A stretch of DNA of 26,612 nt from a virus. Taxonomy: Duplodnaviria; Heunggongvirae; Uroviricota; Caudoviricetes. Every line of letters begins with the position of its first letter. The stretch's first letter is position 1. Under the pieces are notes generated by a model that searched no databases, was not told the origin of the DNA, and was given only the letters and a program-made list of their open reading frames with translations. The DNA lies in IMG/VR virus record IMGVR_UViG_2541047923_000008. The stretch is one strand, 5' to 3'. Shown piece after piece: positions 9,940-23,227 of this stretch. The position numbers were made by a program, and so were the translations under genes.

Positions 9940-10185
9940 TGTTCATTCCACGGACAAAAACAGAGAAAGGAAACGACAGAGGCCAAAAAGCCCGTTTTCA
10001 GCACCTGTCGTTTCCTTTCTTTTCAGGGGGTGTTTTAAATAAAAACATTAGGTTACGGCGAAGAAGAACGGAAACGCCTTAAACCGGAAAATTTTCATAA
10101 ATAGTGAAAAACCGCGAGGTCGCCGCCCCGTAACCTGTCGGATCGCCGGAAAGGACCCGAAAAATGATAATAATTATCATCTACA
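9940..10185. other. cos packaging site (cosB - cosN - cosQ); the 12-nt cohesive-end sequence maps to about 10117-10128
   Basis: Reverse complement of about 10081-10128 reads GGGGCGGCGACCTCGCGGTTTTTCACTATTTATGAAAATTTTCCGGTTT, nearly identical to the lambda left end; flanked on the other side by the lambda right-end sequence (CGGGTCCTTTCCGGCGATCCGACAGGTTACG). Confidence 0.85.
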
Positions 10186-10327
10186 TATCACAACGTGCGT
10201 GTACGCCATCAAACCACGTCAAATAATCAATTATGACGCAGGTATCGTATTAATTGATCCGCATCAACTTAACGTAAAAACAACTTCAGACAATACAAAT
10301 CAGCAACACAGAATACGGGACAACCTC

Positions 10328-10522
10328 ATGTCAACGAAGAACAGAACCCGCAGAACAACAACCCGCAACATCCGCTTTCCTAACCAAATGATTGAACAAA
10401 TTAACATCGCTCTTGATCAAAAAGGGTCCGGGAATTTCTCAGCCTGGGTCATTGAAGCCTGCCGTCGGAGACTAACGTCAGAAAAGAGAGCATATACATC
10501 AATCAAAAGTGATGAAGAATGA
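10328..10522 (+). CDS. Small basic protein of unknown function, possibly a small DNA-binding fold
   Basis: ORF 10199..10522; likely start at the internal ATG at 10328 (MSTKNRTRRTTTRNIRFPNQMIEQINIALDQKGSG...); AT-rich moron region between cos and the lysis genes, opposite strand to the structural genes. Confidence 0.4.
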   Translation: MSTKNRTRRTTTRNIRFPNQMIEQINIALDQKGSGNFSAWVIEACRRRLTSEKRAYTSIKSDEE

Positions 10523-10772
10523 ATATCCCGGTTTCTTTACCTCCCCTCCCACCCCGCACAGGACTGGCGAGCGTGTGGGACAAATATGTGAGTCATAAAC
10601 GCCTTATCCTCAGAAATGCAGTTGGCATCCGAACAGGACGATATTGTAAATTCACCTAATTACGAGGCATTGCAGTAGTTGAATTGTAGTTCTGTATTAG
10701 CCTGACAGTGACAGAATGCGATATTGACTCTGTCACAGGTGAAATAGTTTGAATGGTTAGCAGTTATGGTGA

Positions 10773-10979
10773 TCAGTCAACCACCAAGGAATAATCCTTC
10801 GAATTCTTATCGTGCTTCACCAACGCTGCCTCAATTGCCCTGAATGCTTCCAGAGACACTTGATGTTCTATACATGCAATTACAACATCCGGGTAACCCA
10901 TCGAAATGGTGCTATTAAGCATAGTTTTTACACGAACCTGCTCCTGGGAGGGGGCATCAGTGTATTGATCTTTATGCAT
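10773..10979 (-). CDS. Hypothetical small prophage protein
   Basis: 68-aa ORF with a GGAG Shine-Dalgarno 5-6 nt upstream of the ATG; no family recognised. Confidence 0.45.
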
Positions 10980-11274
10980 TTTGTCGCTCCATGCGTTTGC
11001 TCTTCACTTGCGGCTAAAAATATAACGTCAAATCACTCAGCATGAAAGAGTGAAAGTTTCAGCGCGTTTCCCTTACATAATCTGTCATTTGTATTCTCTT
11101 CAGGTATACCGGAAAGACTAGGTATTGTCACACAACCAATACCATCGACAATCGAGATTTATATCTATTCGGTAATGTTTAAATATAACAAAACCCCGTA
11201 AAAACGAGGTTTATGGGTAATTTGTATTGTTGAATAGCATCTGATGAGAAATTGATGCTAATACTATAAACATA

Positions 11275-11448
11275 CTAGATTAAATCAATCTTGATATCAT
11301 AGCTTTCAAGACCAGTCATTTTTTCCCGTGCAGTAAACTGGATACTGGTAACTTCTTTCCCGGTCTTTTTCTTAAGCTCAATGATTTTTTTTGTTATATA
11401 TTCAGAAATATCTGCTTCTGTTTTTGTTTTTAACTCTTCAATGTTCAT
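11275..11448 (-). CDS. GnsB-like small protein
   Basis: C-terminal 57 aa (MNIEELKTKTEADISEYITKKIIELKKKTGKEVTSIQFTAREKMTGLESYDIKIDLI) resembles E. coli GnsA/GnsB as I recall them; the ORF-track N-terminal extension is probably not translated. Confidence 0.6.
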   Translation of the reverse strand: MNIEELKTKTEADISEYITKKIIELKKKTGKEVTSIQFTAREKMTGLESYDIKIDLI

Positions 11449-11620
11449 CATTTCCTCTTTTAGTCTGTTATGACTGTCCTGGTACACAGTAGTGTCAATT
11501 ATATGGAGCAAACGTATAAAAGATAAGATGAAACATCGCAATAATCAACATACGACGGTCTAAATTTCACACAAACAGATAAAGATGATTATCATTTATT
11601 ATCAATGCATTAGAATCAAA

Positions 11621-11890
11621 TCAATTCAAGAGTCTCATTGCTGCTTCCAGAATTTCTTCTGAAGTTACATGTCGATCCGCTGCTACATAAATGACTTTAT
11701 GATCTCCGGTCAGAGATGGAAACCCTGCAGCCATTACAGTGAGGTGTGTTGTTTCGCCATTTGGATATTCACGCATGATGGTGTTAACTCCGGTCATCAC
11801 TGGCACTACCATTGCTGGTTCAGAGTTAAAAAAAACTATTATTTTTTTCATAATGTTACCGTAATATGTGAGTATCCATCGACTAGACAC
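11621..11890 (-). CDS. Hypothetical small prophage protein (start uncertain, possibly the internal Met at about 11851)
   Basis: 89-aa ORF, AT-rich, no recognisable family. Confidence 0.4.
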   Translation of the reverse strand: MSSRWILTYYGNIMKKIIVFFNSEPAMVVPVMTGVNTIMREYPNGETTHLTVMAAGFPSLTGDHKVIYVAADRHVTSEEILEAAMRLLN

Positions 11891-11892
11891 TA

Positions 11893-11916
11893 AGCAAAAA
11901 AGCTCCCGAAGGAGCC
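11893..11916 (-). terminator. Rho-independent terminator (GCTCC-TTCG-GGAGC followed by a T-tract on the minus strand)
   Basis: Perfect 5-bp GC stem with tetraloop, followed on the minus strand by TTTTTTGC; downstream of the csp gene. Confidence 0.55.
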
Positions 11917-12122
11917 TTCATTTTCACTTTCTTAAATCTAACGACAGATGGCTAACATTTAAGTATTGTGAAATATTATCAAATGTAATCATCATTGATT
12001 TACAAAAGATACATTTTGCCCCGAAAGGATTTCTGTCAGAAACATCAAAAGATGATGTTCTATACTGAGAACCATGGCAACACGGGCATCTAAAGTGAAT
12101 ATGGTTTGTAATATTTTCTACC

Positions 12123-12335
12123 TCAAAGTGCCACTACATGAACAGCTGCAGGGCCTTTAGGTCCGTTCTCAATACCAAATTCGACTTCCTGATTCTCAGT
12201 TAACGTTTTGAAATCGTTGCTCTGAATAGCTGAGAAATGCACAAACACATCTTTGCTACCATCTTTCGGCGTGATGAAACCAAAACCTTTTTCAGGGTTA
12301 AACCATTTCACTAAACCAGTCATTTTGTTAGACAT
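12123..12335 (-). CDS. Cold-shock protein, CspA family (CspI/CspB-like)
   Basis: [38 protein letters not shown]... contains the RNP1 motif KGFGFI and RNP2-like VFVHF of the cold-shock domain; about 360 nt of non-coding sequence upstream, consistent with the long csp 5' UTR. Confidence 0.85.
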
Positions 12336-12698
12336 CATTATTACCTTTTGAAGAAGTTAGCCCTTGGGCAGAATGGTCCGAAAAAAAATATCAGAGAGAA
12401 AAACCAACAAGAAAATCTCAAGAGGTACAAATAATAAAATTATAACAATGACTGCTTCAGATAATTTTGTAACAAACCAGAACACCATTAACGCATGATT
12501 AACCAACCATAGCAAGGATTACTTTTGTAAAGAAAAACACACGAATGAAACAATAGCTTTATTTATTAATAAAACGTGTCATTCTGTCTAATGACCTTTT
12601 ATCTTACCCTTAAGATTTCAAGGATTTTGACTCATGGAAGAGTCCTTTTTATTTAAATTTCACATTCAGCGCTAAAAATAATCCGATTTAATATTAAT

Positions 12699-13726
<1,028 letters not shown>

Positions 13727-14348: not shown

Positions 14349-15482
14349 ATGCATTCGGAAAATATTGCGGCTTACGTCGGGCTGGATGTGCATAAAGAAA
14401 CGTTGGCGGTTGCTATTGCTGCACCTGAACGGCTTGGCGAAGTTCGTTATTATGGTACGATTAACAACGAAGCCCAGGCTGTACGTCGATTATTTCAGAA
14501 ATTGCAGGGACTTTACGGAAACATTCTTTCCTGCTATGAGGCTGGCCCCTGTGGTTTTGGGCTATATCATCAACTCACAGCGATGAATATAAAATGCCAG
14601 GTTATTGCCCCTTCCCGCATACCAAAATCACCGACAGACAGAATCAAAAATGATCATCGGGACGCAATTTCTCTCGCCAGGTTACTGCGGGCTGGAGAAC
14701 TTACCCCTGTCTGGATCCCTGACCTGACTCATGAAGCTATGCGGGATCTAATCAGAGCCCGTGCAGCAGCTAAACGAGACAGCAGAGTTGCCCGACAGCG
14801 AATTCTGAGCATGCTATTGCGAACAGACAAACATTATGCAGGAAAGCACTGGACAGGAAAACATCGAACCTGGTTAGCTAATCAATCATTTAGTCAGCCA
14901 TCTCAACAGATTGCTTTTCAACACTATTGTCAAAGTCTGGAGCAGATTGAAGATCGCATACTTCAACTCGACCAGGAAATATCTCGCCTGTTACCTGAGT
15001 GGTCTCTGTGCAATCTGGTCTGCCAGTTGCAGGCTCTTAAAGGTGTTGGTCAGCTAATTGCAATAACTCTGGTTGCTGAACTGGGTGATTTTTCGCGATT
15101 TTCCAATCCCAAACAGCTCATGGCTTTTCTGGGACTGGTGCCAGGTGAATATTCCAGTGGAAACAGTATTCGTCCCAGAGGAATAACAAAAGTTGGAAAC
15201 AGCGAACTGAGACGTCTGCTTTACGAAGCCGCCTGGTCTTATCGTACACCTGCAAAAGTTGGGGCATGGCTTATATATTACCGACCGGACTCTGTAACAC
15301 AATATTCCAAAGATATTGCATGGAAAGCTCAACAACGATTGTGTTCTCGTTACCGAAGTCTGACAGCAAAAGGGAAAAAATCACAAGTAGCCATTACGGC
15401 GGTGGCTCGTGAGTTGACTGGATTTATGTGGGATATTGCACTTGCTGCCCAATCATCATTCAGTCAGCAGAAGCAAAATTAA
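14349..15482 (+). CDS. IS110-family (DEDD) transposase/recombinase
   Basis: 377-aa ORF; N-terminal VGLDVHKETLAVAI motif typical of the IS110-family DEDD domain and C-terminal helix-hairpin-helix-like region (LKGVGQLIAITLVAELGDFSRF); strong GAGGAGG Shine-Dalgarno. Confidence 0.85.
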   Translation: MHSENIAAYVGLDVHKETLAVAIAAPERLGEVRYYGTINNEAQAVRRLFQKLQGLYGNILSCYEAGPCGFGLYHQLTAMNIKCQVIAPSRIPKSPTDRIKNDHRDAISLARLLRAGELTPVWIPDLTHEAMRDLIRARAAAKRDSRVARQRILSMLLRTDKHYAGKHWTGKHRTWLANQSFSQPSQQIAFQHYCQSLEQIEDRILQLDQEISRLLPEWSLCNLVCQLQALKGVGQLIAITLVAELGDFSRFSNPKQLMAFLGLVPGEYSSGNSIRPRGITKVGNSELRRLLYEAAWSYRTPAKVGAWLIYYRPDSVTQYSKDIAWKAQQRLCSRYRSLTAKGKKSQVAITAVARELTGFMWDIALAAQSSFSQQKQN

Positions 15483-16557: not shown

Positions 16558-16632
<75 letters not shown>

Positions 16633-16635
16633 ATA

Positions 16636-16711
<76 letters not shown>

Positions 16712-16713
16712 AC

Positions 16714-16790
16714 TGGACCGCCACCGGGGACTCGAACCTCGCACACTCAACTTAAAGGGTTGACGCTCTTTCCTGATGAGCTAGTGGCGG
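16714..16790 (-). tRNA. tRNA-like gene, possibly tRNA-Lys (UUU) or a degenerate tRNA pseudogene
   Basis: Reverse complement CCGCCACTAGCTCATCAGGAAAGAGCGTCAACCCTTTAAGTTGAGTGTGCGAGGTTCGAGTCCCCGGTGGCGGTCCA; good acceptor, D and anticodon stems, but C at position 33 and one T-stem mismatch. Confidence 0.4.
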
Positions 16791-16791
16791 C

Positions 16792-16867
16792 TGGTGGCCC
16801 TTGCTGGATTTGAACCAGCGACCTGGCGATTATGAGTCGCTCGCTCTCACCACTGAGCTAAAGGGCC
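16792..16867 (-). tRNA. tRNA with anticodon CAU (Ile2/lysidine-type or Met), ileZ-like as in lambdoid Stx phages
   Basis: Reverse complement GGCCCTTTAGCTCAGTGGTGAGAGCGAGCGACTCATAATCGCCAGGTCGCTGGTTCAAATCCAGCAAGGGCCACCA; resembles E. coli ileX-type tRNA as recalled; anticodon loop CUCAUAA. Confidence 0.7.
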
Positions 16868-20281: not shown

Positions 20282-20437
20282 TTACTCCTCAGGTTCGTAA
20301 GCTGTGAAGACAGCGACCTCCGTCTGGCCGGTTCGGATTCGTACCTCGCAGAGGTCTTTCCTCGTTACCAGTGCCGTCACAATGACGGTTAAACAGATGA
20401 CGATCAGGGCGATTAACATCGCCTTTTGCTGCTTCAT
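20282..20437 (-). CDS. hok: Hok-family membrane toxin (type I toxin-antitoxin)
   Basis: 51-aa product MKQQKAMLIALIVICLTVIVTALVTRKDLCEVRIRTGQTEVAVFTAYEPEE matches my memory of HokD/RelF; the ORF track shows a 19-codon in-frame upstream extension. Confidence 0.85.
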   Translation of the reverse strand: MKQQKAMLIALIVICLTVIVTALVTRKDLCEVRIRTGQTEVAVFTAYEPEE

Positions 20438-20652
20438 AGCCTGCTTCTCCTTGCCTTTCGGCACGTAAGAGGCTAACCTAGATTTGCCGTTCATAGATTG
20501 AGCCTCAGATTAATGTTAAGCGTCTTGCAGGACGCGTAATGTTAACTGGGGCTTTTCTCTATCTGCCTTTGGTGTTCATGCCTGAGGCAGATAGCCTCAA
20601 GCACCCGCAGCAATTCTACTTAACTCACGTCACCTCGCCAATATAAAATCAA

Positions 20653-20943
20653 TCAGAAAGGCGATCCATAAGAACAATAGCAAGACAATAAATCGCCATT
20701 ACAGCCGTAATAGCCAGCGCACATTTGAGAACCAGCACCACAACCTCCTGTATTGGACGTACACCAGTCCTGATAAATATGAGGATGTCTCGTCAGTGAT
20801 TCAATACAACTATTGGGTATAGTTTCTGTGATTTTGTTCTGTAGAAATGGAACATAATAACCTGTCACCACCAGCACTTCTTTAAATACGCCAAGTCCGA
20901 CGCAAGCTAACCTTCTAGCCCGCTTTGAGCGAGAAGCAGACAT
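20653..20943 (-). CDS. Hypothetical Cys/Gly-rich small protein; coding status doubtful
   Basis: 96-aa ORF with a basic, hydrophobic N-terminus and a Cys/Gly/Tyr-rich C-terminus (CTSNTGGCGAGSQMCAGYYGCNGDLLSCYCSYGSPF); no Shine-Dalgarno. Confidence 0.25.
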   Translation of the reverse strand: MSASRSKRARRLACVGLGVFKEVLVVTGYYVPFLQNKITETIPNSCIESLTRHPHIYQDWCTSNTGGCGAGSQMCAGYYGCNGDLLSCYCSYGSPF

Positions 20944-21231
20944 TTACTTAACTGGATAGCAAGAGACTTCATATATCATGGTTGATCCCGGAGTTTTCAA
21001 TAATGGAAAGACATTGCCCGTATGATCGGGCCGTAACCACATTAGAAGCAGGTGCCCTTTGTGAATTTTGATTGTGTCAACCTATCTGTTTTGAATTTTT
21101 TATAAAAAATATTCGCAAATTTGTGAATTATGAGAGACAAACGAGCATGGACAACCAATGTTACTTTCATACACAATGAAGCAACATGATAAAAGTACAC
21201 TGACTTTAGCAAGTAAATTTAGGAGATTGCG

Positions 21232-22566
21232 ATGTTTAGCTTAATCATGGCCGGAGAACCGGACGTTTTTGACCGCTGGCCGTGTATGGACCCTGGGCTT
21301 AAAGAAGGCGAGGAAAGATTCTCGATGTCCCGCATGCTGGAAGGCACCCCAAGCGATATTTACAGTAAATTAACACCAATAAGACCCGATACCTTAAGAG
21401 AACTCGCCAAGCTACCAGTATTGTTCATGACCGAAACTTATACAAAAGATGATGAATATGATACAAACAAGTACATCAGGATCAGACTTGGGGAAATAAG
21501 AAACTTACGTAAAGATGGTGGCGATATTTTATTTTCTTTCAAGATTAATCATAATTTTGGAGAAATAACGAATCCCCAAACGACATTATATAAAGAAACC
21601 CTAGGGCTAGGATCTTTCGGGTTAAGTCGTACACATTGGGCAGTAAAAAATAAGGATTTAAATATTGTTCTGGAATCACTTGGTTTAAACAAACAAAATA
21701 GCCAACTGAAAGGTACAATCAAATTAAAAAAACAAACATACCCAGTAGTCGAGAATATTATAGATTATCTTAGTTTCATAAAGAAAAACTTTCGTGATGG
21801 TCTCATTACCTTTTATCGTGGACACTCTAAAAGCTCATATGAGCTTGTCCCCTCTCTTTACAGAAAAAATCAAAACGGGACGTACAGGCATCTTGCTTCA
21901 GAATCTGATTTAGTACGTGAAATACTCAGCGCAAGACCAAATGAATTTAAGGAGGATAAATTTACGATTGATAAACTTGTCCGCATGCAGCATTATGGCT
22001 TGCCTACAAGACTCTTAGACATTACATCTAACCCACTGATAGCATTATATTTTGCTTGCTGTTCGAACCCCGATGAAAACGGACAGGTGATTTCGTTTTC
22101 AACAAATAGAAAGAAAATTAAATATTTCGACTCAGATACAGTGAGCTGTATAGCAAACTTATCACTTTTATCTTACGAAGAGTTGGAAAAATTGTCCTCC
22201 TCTGATTCCAGAAAAGGTAATATGGAGTTATCTGAACTCACGGATAAACTTGCAGACCTTATACAGAATGAAAAATCATATTTCAGAAACAGAATAATTC
22301 CTGATGACTTAAGGAAAGTTGTTTTCCTTAAGGCTAAAATAAATAATGAACGCATACAATCTCAGGCAGGAGCTTTTCTTCTGTTCGGACTTGATCCCAT
22401 TTTACCGGAAACAGATGCTGAGTTTCCTCTTAACAGAGTGGAGATAGCGAACAAAAATAAAATTCTGGAAGAGCTGGCGCAGCTTAATATATCCGAAAGC
22501 ACTGTATATCCCAGCATGGAGAAAACGGCAGCAGAAATTGCAACAAAGTTTTTATCGGTATCATAA
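21232..22566 (+). CDS. FRG-domain protein with an uncharacterised N-terminal domain of about 190 aa; candidate prophage accessory or defence gene
   Basis: 444-aa ORF with AGGAG Shine-Dalgarno 6 nt upstream; contains the FRG-family motifs as I recall them: FYRG (aa 194-197), QHYGLPTRLLD (aa 253-263), NERIQSQAGAF (aa 371-381); AT-rich, opposite strand to the surrounding phage operon. Confidence 0.8.
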   Translation: MFSLIMAGEPDVFDRWPCMDPGLKEGEERFSMSRMLEGTPSDIYSKLTPIRPDTLRELAKLPVLFMTETYTKDDEYDTNKYIRIRLGEIRNLRKDGGDILFSFKINHNFGEITNPQTTLYKETLGLGSFGLSRTHWAVKNKDLNIVLESLGLNKQNSQLKGTIKLKKQTYPVVENIIDYLSFIKKNFRDGLITFYRGHSKSSYELVPSLYRKNQNGTYRHLASESDLVREILSARPNEFKEDKFTIDKLVRMQHYGLPTRLLDITSNPLIALYFACCSNPDENGQVISFSTNRKKIKYFDSDTVSCIANLSLLSYEELEKLSSSDSRKGNMELSELTDKLADLIQNEKSYFRNRIIPDDLRKVVFLKAKINNERIQSQAGAFLLFGLDPILPETDAEFPLNRVEIANKNKILEELAQLNISESTVYPSMEKTAAEIATKFLSVS

Positions 22567-22593: not shown

Positions 22594-22609
22594 AAGACTG
22601 CGCAGTCTT
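22594..22609. terminator. Perfect 16-bp palindrome (AAGACTGCGCAGTCTT) just after the FRG gene stop; likely bidirectional hairpin terminator
   Basis: Perfect palindrome 28 nt after the stop at 22564-22566; a U-rich run follows on the minus strand. Confidence 0.4.
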
Positions 22610-22804
22610 CAGATGGAAGTGCTCATTGGGAACGGTTTCAGGGGCAAAAACTGGAAGTTCCAGTGGGCCTTGAGCTGCTCCCTATAAATTAACATATCTC
22701 AATGTTATCAATGTCTGCTTTTGGCACAAAGCGGACAACCACGCTAGCTCTACCCTGTGCCACAAAATGTCAATTTACATCTGAACTAATGCACTTTAAT
22801 CTCG

Positions 22805-23227
22805 TCACTTCAAAAAATACCGAACATCCCCCTGATAAAACGACAATATCCGCTGCATAACTTCGCTTTTACGACACTCAGTACAAATTATATTATGACG
22901 CCTGTCGTAACGACGTATTTCTCCATCAGGTAATGACCAGATAAGGTCCGGATCAACCGCAGATGGTTTCTTCAGCTTTGCCCTTGAGAGCTTTTTACGG
23001 GCATTTTGCCAGTCCTTACGCGCCTGTTCAGACGGGAATAACCCGTAACCAGAGTTGTATACATCGCCACTGGCAACCAGCTCTCTGGCCAGAACGCTCA
23101 TCAGATATCTTGTTGCCCCAGTTTTAGCTTCCAGTTGTCGTAACGTCTCGCGCCCACTCTGGCGTACGAGTTCAAGAACCTGCCCTTTAATTTTTTCCCG
23201 CTCTTCTTGTGTAAAAACTTTTGCCAC
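22805..23227 (-). CDS. Hypothetical protein with a possible winged-helix N-terminus, downstream of the replication gene
   Basis: 140-aa ORF MAKVFTQEEREKIKGQVLELVRQSGRETLRQLEAKTGATRYLMSVLARELV...; C-terminal CTEC; no confident family. Confidence 0.45.
   Translation of the reverse strand: MAKVFTQEEREKIKGQVLELVRQSGRETLRQLEAKTGATRYLMSVLARELVASGDVYNSGYGLFPSEQARKDWQNARKKLSRAKLKKPSAVDPDLIWSLPDGEIRRYDRRHNIICTECRKSEVMQRILSFYQGDVRYFLK

Follow-up and report, generated by a model that had tools for sequence, protein, structure and literature searches.

Metis (MisA/MisB; PUA-Cal-HAD) recognizes infection by means of an N-terminal PUA-like pocket that binds m6-dAMP, a methylated nucleotide that arises when phages degrade Dam-methylated host DNA, and its C-terminal calcineurin-like enzyme, once switched on, depletes NAD+ or deoxynucleoside triphosphates, thereby aborting the infection (bioRxiv 2025.11.05.686725; bioRxiv 2026.01.15.699771). 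The PUA-like family of Metis is also joined to HEPN, DrHyd, TIR, HNH and McrB domains (bioRxiv 2025.11.05.686725; bioRxiv 2026.01.15.699771). The FRG domain has been placed in the ADP-ribosyltransferase (ART) superfamily by the Aravind group and is predicted to be an NADase-type antiviral effector (PMC9503650), and a survey of Legionella ARTs gives the same assignment (bioRxiv 2024.07.30.605764). The present analysis deals with a gene encoding an FRG protein of 444 amino acids that is located on a stretch of 26,612 nucleotides from a virus of the class Caudoviricetes (record IMGVR_UViG_2541047923_000008), hereafter referred to as the window. The protein consists of an N-terminal domain with a predicted PUA-like fold (the N-domain), a linker and an FRG module, and the N-domain was identified as a mobile module that is common to interchangeable immune effectors, including TIR, FRG and kinase domains as well as others.

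The open reading frame (ORF) of the FRG gene begins with an ATG codon and runs opposite to both of its neighbours, hokD (20282-20437) and the DUF977 gene (22805-23227). The chance of a 444-codon open frame is about 1e-14, as computed from a GC content of 37%, at which about 6.8% of the codons are expected to be stops. The deduced protein is 100% identical to RefSeq entry WP_021549781, annotated as 'FRG domain-containing protein', and matches PHROG 4962, a family of unknown function, over its full length (E = 1e-82). A first-pass annotation, made from the sequence alone, had proposed the FRG domain on the basis of three motifs. A scan with hidden Markov models confirmed this assignment, since Pfam FRG (PF08867) matched with a score of 80 bits, the cut-off being 25 (E = 2.6e-22), covering residues 193-282 only, and 14 PADLOC models of PDC-S15 matched as well, the best being PDLC04936 (E = 9.6e-99; residues 166-440). 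The motifs FYRG (194-197), QHYGLPTRLLD (253-263) and NERIQSQAGAF (372-382) are present and conserved in the family, the last one falling outside the Pfam model and within the longer PDC-S15 models. The protein is thus a direct member of PDC-S15/Pfam FRG and, like PDC-S15, is encoded by a stand-alone gene. PDC-S15 is a computational candidate, and its best-matching models have a length of 286-300 amino acids and omit the PUA-like domain, so that the present protein represents an N-domain-bearing sub-architecture of this family.

The FRG module contains approximately 25 invariant polar residues, among them R196, H198, S208, R211, E224, E230, R251, Q253, H254, R260, D263, T/S265, N267, S301, D302, E347, K348, R374, S377 and Q378. 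According to the structural model, R196 is located on strand 191-198, T/S265-x-N267 closes strand 261-265 and is followed by a helix, and S377-Q378 directly precede strand 381-385, after a loop modelled with low confidence (371-378). Judged by this placement, R196, T/S265-x-N267 and S377-Q378 probably correspond to R, S-T-S and [QE]-x-E of the R-S-E ARTs. The similarity of the modelled C-terminal part to the ART fold is putative and lies at the level of the fold. The FRG protein differs from the ART toxins (LT/CT, pertussis-like ArtA, diphtheria-type, TccC3 and RES) by being cytoplasmic instead of secreted and by large insertions of helical structure (residues 224-254 and 302-361), and it gave no sequence match to any solved ART.

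More than 4000 homologues share the architecture of N-domain and FRG, and the full-length arrangement is maintained in Enterobacterales, Aeromonas, Rhizobium and Sphingomonas (41-88% identity), where about 70 residues distributed over both domains are invariant. Relatives are carried by 89 viral contigs. In the 80 viral loci that were kept from the 89 relatives found, the FRG domain is preceded by the N-domain in 40 proteins (431-499 amino acids) and stands alone in about 27 (278-317 amino acids); seven proteins contain tandem YegP/DUF1508-like repeats instead, and two have another N-terminus of about 250 amino acids. The repeat-bearing proteins are 388-434 amino acids long (L068, L074, L075, L085, L086 and L097), and their likeness to YegP/DUF1508 was recognized by eye, for instance in KKSNDGGYLFTLRAKNGEILLASSTF.

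Regarding the N-terminal part, the first-pass annotation had described an unrecognized domain of about 190 amino acids. The lack of recognizable relatives was borne out, as neither Pfam nor NCBIfam nor the PDB yielded a match, and the size was corrected to a fold of about 150 amino acids followed by a variable linker of about 25. The PDB sequence search with the N-domain profile returned nothing, PDB searches with the whole protein and with both domain profiles gave nothing useful, the NCBIfam search was negative for the protein, and no significant match was obtained with Foldseek. The predicted structure of the N-domain shows a PUA-like beta-barrel, a similarity at the fold level that does not entail membership in a sequence family. 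Its nearest structural neighbours are EVE-HNH VcaM4I, YTH-McrB, SRA-HNH and PD-T4-3, and the PUA-like readers resembling it in fold comprise EVE, YTH, ASCH, McrB-N and Lon-N. On the evidence of the model the N-domain is PUA-like, and the predicted similarity to ARTs is confined to the FRG part. Only R34, R133, H135 and W136 are invariant in the N-domain across all architectures; E37, T39, E68 and G87 are nearly so. The domain is acidic, with a median net charge of -5 and a pI of 5.2, which is more in keeping with a small ligand than with a long nucleic-acid surface.

When the profile of the N-domain alone was used in an exhaustive search, 860 representative proteins were detected at E <= 1e-3, including 184 at E <= 1e-10. 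The proteins range from 80 to 1061 amino acids in length, and in some of them the domain is internal. Scanning 64 of the longer representatives (at least 260 amino acids) against Pfam and PADLOC revealed the CAP12/Pycsar-type TIR domain (PADLOC PDC-S35) as partner in 17 proteins and FRG in 13, followed by Ser/Thr kinase and Abi_C domains with six proteins each and by other TIR domains (TIR_2 in five, TIR in four). AbiJ_NTD3, KAP NTPase, PNP, Schlafen AlbA_2, SEFIR, EAD2, FGE-sulfatase and a DncV-like cyclase were found once each. In all architectures that were mapped individually the N-domain sits ahead of the effector, among them AbiJ - N-domain - TIR, EAD2 - N-domain - kinase - FGE-sulfatase, N-domain - KAP NTPase, N-domain - PNP and CBASS-type cyclase - N-domain - FRG. 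The pairing of one N-domain with many effectors and of one FRG domain with several N-termini is the signature of sensor-effector immune proteins. A sharing of the N-domain with the validated kinase system PD-T4-6 was ruled out, since the PD-T4-6 models hit only the kinase part of the proteins combining N-domain and kinase.

The features of the FRG gene and of its flanks are compiled in Table 1. The coordinates, the strand and the TAGGAG element confirmed the earlier description of an ORF with its own ribosome-binding site that lies antisense between the replication genes and hok. Its GC content of 37.3% contrasts with 49.5% for the window and with 46.6-54% for the flanking phage genes (46.6% for the DUF977 gene and 53-54% for the replisome-organiser and DUF968 genes). 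This composition, the minus-strand neighbours and the annotation of the same region elsewhere agree with the view that the gene is an AT-rich single-gene insertion on the opposite strand of a prophage accessory slot. The palindrome AAGACTGCGCAGTCTT, which begins 28 nucleotides past the FRG stop codon and precedes AGTTTTCGTT on the minus strand, forms a 6-bp hairpin in a region with a z-score of -1.9. The palindrome noted in the first-pass annotation thus exists; it is devoid of a T-run on the plus strand and was not called in the terminator scan, and its designation as terminator-like is therefore weakly supported. Read on the minus strand, the palindrome together with AGTTTTCGTT (22594-22635) may pause or weakly terminate transcription of the rightward early operon before it would pass antisense through the FRG gene.

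Table 1. Coordinates of the FRG gene, its domains, its signals and the flanks of its slot in the window
Feature	Position	Strand	Basis or remark
Complete coding sequence: PUA-like N-domain, linker and FRG module (PDC-S15; PHROG 4962)	21232-22566	+	
N-domain, residues 1-150: predicted PUA-like beta-barrel, candidate ligand sensor	21232-21681	+	
Variable basic linker, residues ~151-175, net charge +3	21682-21756	+	gapped, poorly conserved alignment columns; modelled without regular secondary structure
FRG module, residues ~176-440: ADP-ribosyltransferase-like candidate effector	21757-22551	+	
Pfam FRG core, residues 193-282	21808-22077	+	
Shine-Dalgarno element TAGGAG, 6 nt 5' of ATG	21220-21225	+	read from the sequence
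Candidate for a weak sigma-70-like promoter (TGGACA-18-CACAAT), within the AT-rich intergenic DNA upstream	21148-21177	+	consensus scan 9/12; tentative
Perfect 16-nt palindrome between the convergent FRG and DUF977 genes	22594-22609	.	
hokD (mok/hok) type I toxin gene, left flank of the slot	20282-20494	-	ORF; RefSeq of the identical region; conserved in other prophages
DUF977 gene, right flank of the slot, end of the replication module	22805-23227	-	ORF; annotation; conserved with other cargo elsewhere

An identical region was found in E. coli SJC33, where it belongs to a lambdoid prophage beside tRNA-Ser and mtfA. In this genome the FRG gene is bordered on one side by Q, RusA, DUF968, two hypothetical genes and hokD, and on the other side by DUF977, a replisome organiser, YdaT, and Cro-like and CI-like genes. 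The temperate phage Tritos displays the same arrangement at 95.7% identity. Among 5426 complete E. coli genomes, 28-41 carry the FRG gene in the slot between hokD and DUF977. Other prophages contain in its place a 340-aa protein with a RelA/SpoT domain that corresponds to the PADLOC candidate PDC-S33 (E = 7e-119), QueH with or without a methyltransferase, an alpha/beta hydrolase, DUF4406, DUF7167, KilA-N or insertion sequence (IS) elements. In E. coli 23AR1183 the slot is occupied by a hypothetical protein of 269 amino acids (L024:2313-3122, +), likewise encoded on the opposite strand, which gave no PADLOC match and is a further uncharacterised candidate cargo gene. Since the cargo differs between fixed hokD and DUF977 flanks, the slot is one of high turnover, and the morons that alternate in it include the FRG gene. 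The lambdoid morons include rexAB and sieB. As in these morons and in the old/tin/fun cargo of P2, single genes or small cassettes with their own transcription signals here occupy high-turnover positions; the P2 hotspot, in which FRG homologues lie, is a different site from the hokD-DUF977 slot of the present Qin/Rac-like lambdoid early region. An additional Cys/Gly-rich ORF of 96 amino acids (20653-20943, minus strand) separates the hokD and FRG genes; RefSeq leaves it without annotation in the identical region, and it probably overlaps with the regulatory sequences of hok/sok.

The neighbourhoods of the homologues provided further information on the genomic context. Two E. coli homologues, P0047 (60% identical) and P0091 (45%), are located in the P2-like prophage hotspot between the portal gene Q and the replication gene A (old/tin), where P0091 adjoins a reverse-transcriptase gene. 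The same hotspot harbours a Yersinia homologue 467 bp downstream of a CBASS operon composed of CD-NTase and Cap15 on the same strand. A Klebsiella homologue was found in the tail-region accessory locus of a P2-like prophage, and a Morganellaceae homologue in an integrase-bearing island together with Fic and DUF87; islands outside phages and a plasmid carry relatives as well. In the Klebsiella P2-like prophages (L010-L013: 6432-7829, +), a protein of 439-465 amino acids is encoded on the same strand 172 bp upstream of the FRG homologue; it has no Pfam match and may be an FRG partner or the product of a separate cargo gene. A census of 150 ORFs, those closest to the FRG genes of 41 non-redundant viral loci, yielded mostly phage core genes, besides HamB, DzbA, SngC, retron-type reverse transcriptases and AbiH, with further matches to PDC-S06, PDC-S31, PDC-M23B, a protein combining NERD and UvrD, and HicB. 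None of the homologue neighbourhoods viewed represented a housekeeping context. Flanking genes varied in every context viewed, and no conserved adjacent partner or antitoxin gene was present. The occurrence in P2 hotspots beside a retron-type reverse transcriptase and CBASS, the integrase-bearing island and the alternative cargo PDC-S33 in the slot are in line with the anti-phage or abortive-infection type of gene that had been suggested from location in the first-pass annotation, and a role in defence is well supported by genomic context.

We consider there to be an even chance that the product of the FRG gene unites an anti-phage sensor and effector in one polypeptide, acts by abortive infection and couples PUA-like sensing to NAD+ or ADP-ribosylation chemistry of the FRG module. 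In the phage-defence mechanism that we infer, the gene would be a prophage-borne, independently transcribed moron, and the N-domain would serve as sensor, its pocket around the invariant residues R34, R133, H135 and W136 binding an infection-specific ligand. The ligand would most likely be of nucleotide size, for instance a modified or otherwise abnormal mononucleotide. Upon binding, the C-terminal FRG module, as an enzyme of the ART superfamily, would be released, de-repressed or assembled, and would then use up NAD+, the presumed target, or ADP-ribosylate an essential target. The infected cell would thereby be halted, and the population of lysogens as well as the resident prophage would be protected.

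In this form the gene may work like Metis, by analogy with the mechanism of that system. Both have an N-terminal PUA-like domain and a C-terminal effector, both are found on mobile elements of E. coli, and in both the sensor is reused with other partners, including TIR. Abortive infection is the outcome of Metis, whereas it is proposed for the FRG protein. Moreover, the Metis effector is a calcineurin-like phosphoesterase with a HAD/MisB partner gene, whereas the present effector is an FRG module and the neighbouring genes are hokD and DUF977; the description of the Metis PUA family names neither FRG nor kinase domains as partners. Because the N-domain is dissimilar, the effector is different and a HAD partner is missing, the protein may act in a Metis-like way but is no member of that system. 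Membership of the Metis PUA-like family was rejected at an HHalign probability of 0.2%. The link to Metis is accordingly one of mechanism and not of family, and together with the identity of the PUA-like N-domain as a module and the variable hokD-DUF977 slot it is new in this analysis. Rather more speculative, with a likelihood clearly below even, is the detailed version in which the N-domain constitutes a second PUA-like family of small-nucleotide danger-signal sensors with multiple effectors, and FRG a first-in-class immune effector of the ART type with a non-canonical R-S/T-Q active site. The protein would then read a phage-generated nucleotide, for example a modified deoxynucleoside monophosphate from the breakdown of the host genome or a phage-specific one, and respond by collapse of NAD+ or by ADP-ribosylation.

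Several observations weigh against the interpretation as a sensor-effector. The comparison of the N-domain profile with three MisA N-termini gave an E-value of 0.37 in HHalign, and the EVE, YTH and ASCH families of Pfam were unmatched by 21 N-domain members at E <= 10. Since W136 is the only invariant aromatic residue of the N-domain, an aromatic cage is putative. The partners of the N-domain also comprise kinases and NTPases, and for this reason its interchange with TIR is no proof of NAD+ chemistry. In the FRG module, the position at which the catalytic glutamate of the R-S-E ARTs and of the ART toxins is expected is occupied by the invariant glutamine Q378, within the loop of low confidence; the predicted FRG chemistry may therefore be non-canonical. 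The promoter candidate is weak, and the consensus scan found no more such sites in the region than expected from shuffled sequences. The defence-type neighbours in the census of 150 ORFs were counted without a background control. Finally, the literature search found no experiment on any FRG protein, which agrees with the statement of the first-pass annotation that the family is functionally uncharacterised, and the PDC candidates are called 'still uncharacterized' in a 2025 paper. The further claim of an undescribed function holds with regard to experimental characterization, whereas the family itself is already catalogued (PDC-S15, RefSeq and Table S5 of Rousset 2022) and predictions of its fold and function exist. 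The combination 'hypothetical + FRG + RVT_1' is listed among the cargos of the P2 hotspot (Rousset 2022, Table S5), and FRG is absent from the table of evaluated systems in the same study as well as from the supplements of Vassallo 2022. According to a 2026 preprint, PDC-S15 is one of the features that best predict phage infectivity in a panel of Pseudomonas aeruginosa, a result that is purely correlational.

The fold of the N-domain also raises the question of a modification-dependent reader, in which the N-domain would bind modified bases such as hydroxymethylcytosine (hmC), glucosyl-hmC or N6-methyladenine (m6A) in polymeric phage DNA or RNA in the manner of type IV restriction systems, like the EVE, YTH, SRA and McrB-N domains, and the FRG module would modify nucleic acid by DarT-like ADP-ribosylation or trigger the loss of NAD+. 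The FRG protein shares with the type IV PUA-like readers the fusion of a PUA-like N-terminus to a C-terminal catalytic (here putative) module and the defence context. It differs in that Pfam and PADLOC scans of the protein detected neither a nuclease nor an AAA+ domain, in its acidic N-domain, and in its position outside the EVE, YTH and ASCH sequence families. A median charge of -5 would be unusual for a surface that binds a polymer, no nuclease occurs among the fusion partners of the N-domain in the census of 64 proteins, and the resemblance to known readers is one of fold only. We regard this explanation as unlikely.

Somewhat less probable still is the possibility that the FRG protein is an orphan second-messenger effector, the N-domain of which would receive a cyclic or linear oligonucleotide from a cyclase encoded elsewhere, as in CBASS or Pycsar systems, with the FRG module as the killing component. 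Such a function would be consistent with the CAP12/Pycsar-type TIR as the most frequent partner of the N-domain, with the CBASS operon upstream of the Yersinia homologue and with the metagenomic protein P0181 (L021:6001-8283, contig ERZ25070530), a single ORF of 760 amino acids that fuses a CBASS-type oligonucleotide cyclase to a PUA-like N-domain and FRG. The cyclase part of P0181 is complete according to the PADLOC cyclase model (E = 1e-112), and the gene is flanked by transposases; if real, P0181 would be a one-protein cyclase-sensor-effector. This cyclase fusion is known from one contig, however, and neither a partner CD-NTase nor any other cyclase is annotated in the early regions of the present prophage and of phage Tritos. 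Likewise, no cyclase lies next to those N-domain-TIR and N-domain-PNP relatives that were examined, and the top families of the neighbour census include none. A general need for a neighbouring cyclase is not supported, since a single fused protein on a single contig and one adjacent CBASS operon are all that was found.

ADP-ribosyltransferases encoded by phages are well known for roles in host takeover. The FRG gene might therefore benefit the phage in a way other than anti-phage defence, for example as an ART comparable to T4 Alt, ModA and ModB that would modify host proteins in the lysogenic state or in lytic growth, as a counter-defence enzyme acting on NAD-derived signals or as a lysogenic-conversion factor. 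The phage-borne relatives on the 89 viral contigs are compatible with such a role, as is the familiarity of phage ARTs from general knowledge and from a review (PMC9503650), but the FRG gene is read against the lytic operon from its own ribosome-binding site and occupies hotspots of old, tin, retrons and CBASS. In addition, relatives are present in non-phage islands and on a plasmid, and the other partners of the N-domain are typical suicide effectors, namely TIR, Abi_C and AbiJ, which renders this role improbable. It is very improbable that the gene serves as a selfish toxin or for addiction, or is an inert passenger, and hitch-hikes without sensing in a recombination-prone slot by hok/sok, as its position beside the hokD type I toxin gene and the entry of IS elements into the slot might suggest, since the full-length architecture is conserved over wide taxa with invariant residues in both domains and no conserved adjacent antitoxin gene or RNA was found across the contexts.

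Other parts of the window contain additional accessory genes. A 377-aa ORF on the opposite strand of the lysis region (14349-15482, +), located between the lysozyme and YdfR genes, encodes the IS110-like transposase of ISEc45; copies of this element are 99.9% identical in Nissle 1917 and other strains, and the corresponding region of CFT073 is the same without the insertion. The stretch at approximately 10040-12700 is AT-rich (GC 0.34-0.44) and devoid of ORFs of at least 110 amino acids. In a near-identical prophage of CFT073 the same stretch carries ylcI, gnsB (GnsA/GnsB 'addiction module toxin'), ynfN and the cold-shock genes cspI and ynfQ; it is another moron cluster, situated between the terminase and the lysis genes. 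Upstream of Q, a tRNA cluster on the minus strand (16558-16867) specifies Gly(tcc), Thr(tgt), Lys(ttt) and one tRNA with a CAT anticodon. The latter was designated Met by ARAGORN and Ile in RefSeq for the SJC33 equivalent, and it is probably a lysidine-modified tRNA-Ile2.

FRG proteins are widespread, among other places in the hotspots of P2 and lambdoid prophages, and are flagged by PADLOC. If the FRG gene is indeed a phage-defence gene, the whole candidate family PDC-S15 would be validated, and with it PDC-S35, which combines the N-domain with TIR, by virtue of the common N-domain. An enzyme of the ART superfamily would join the known immune effectors. The logic of Metis, in which a PUA-like pocket senses a nucleotide by-product of infection, would moreover be more general and would have arisen in more than one PUA-like lineage. 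As the gene is small, single and present in E. coli, with an obvious list of mutants, the question is directly testable.

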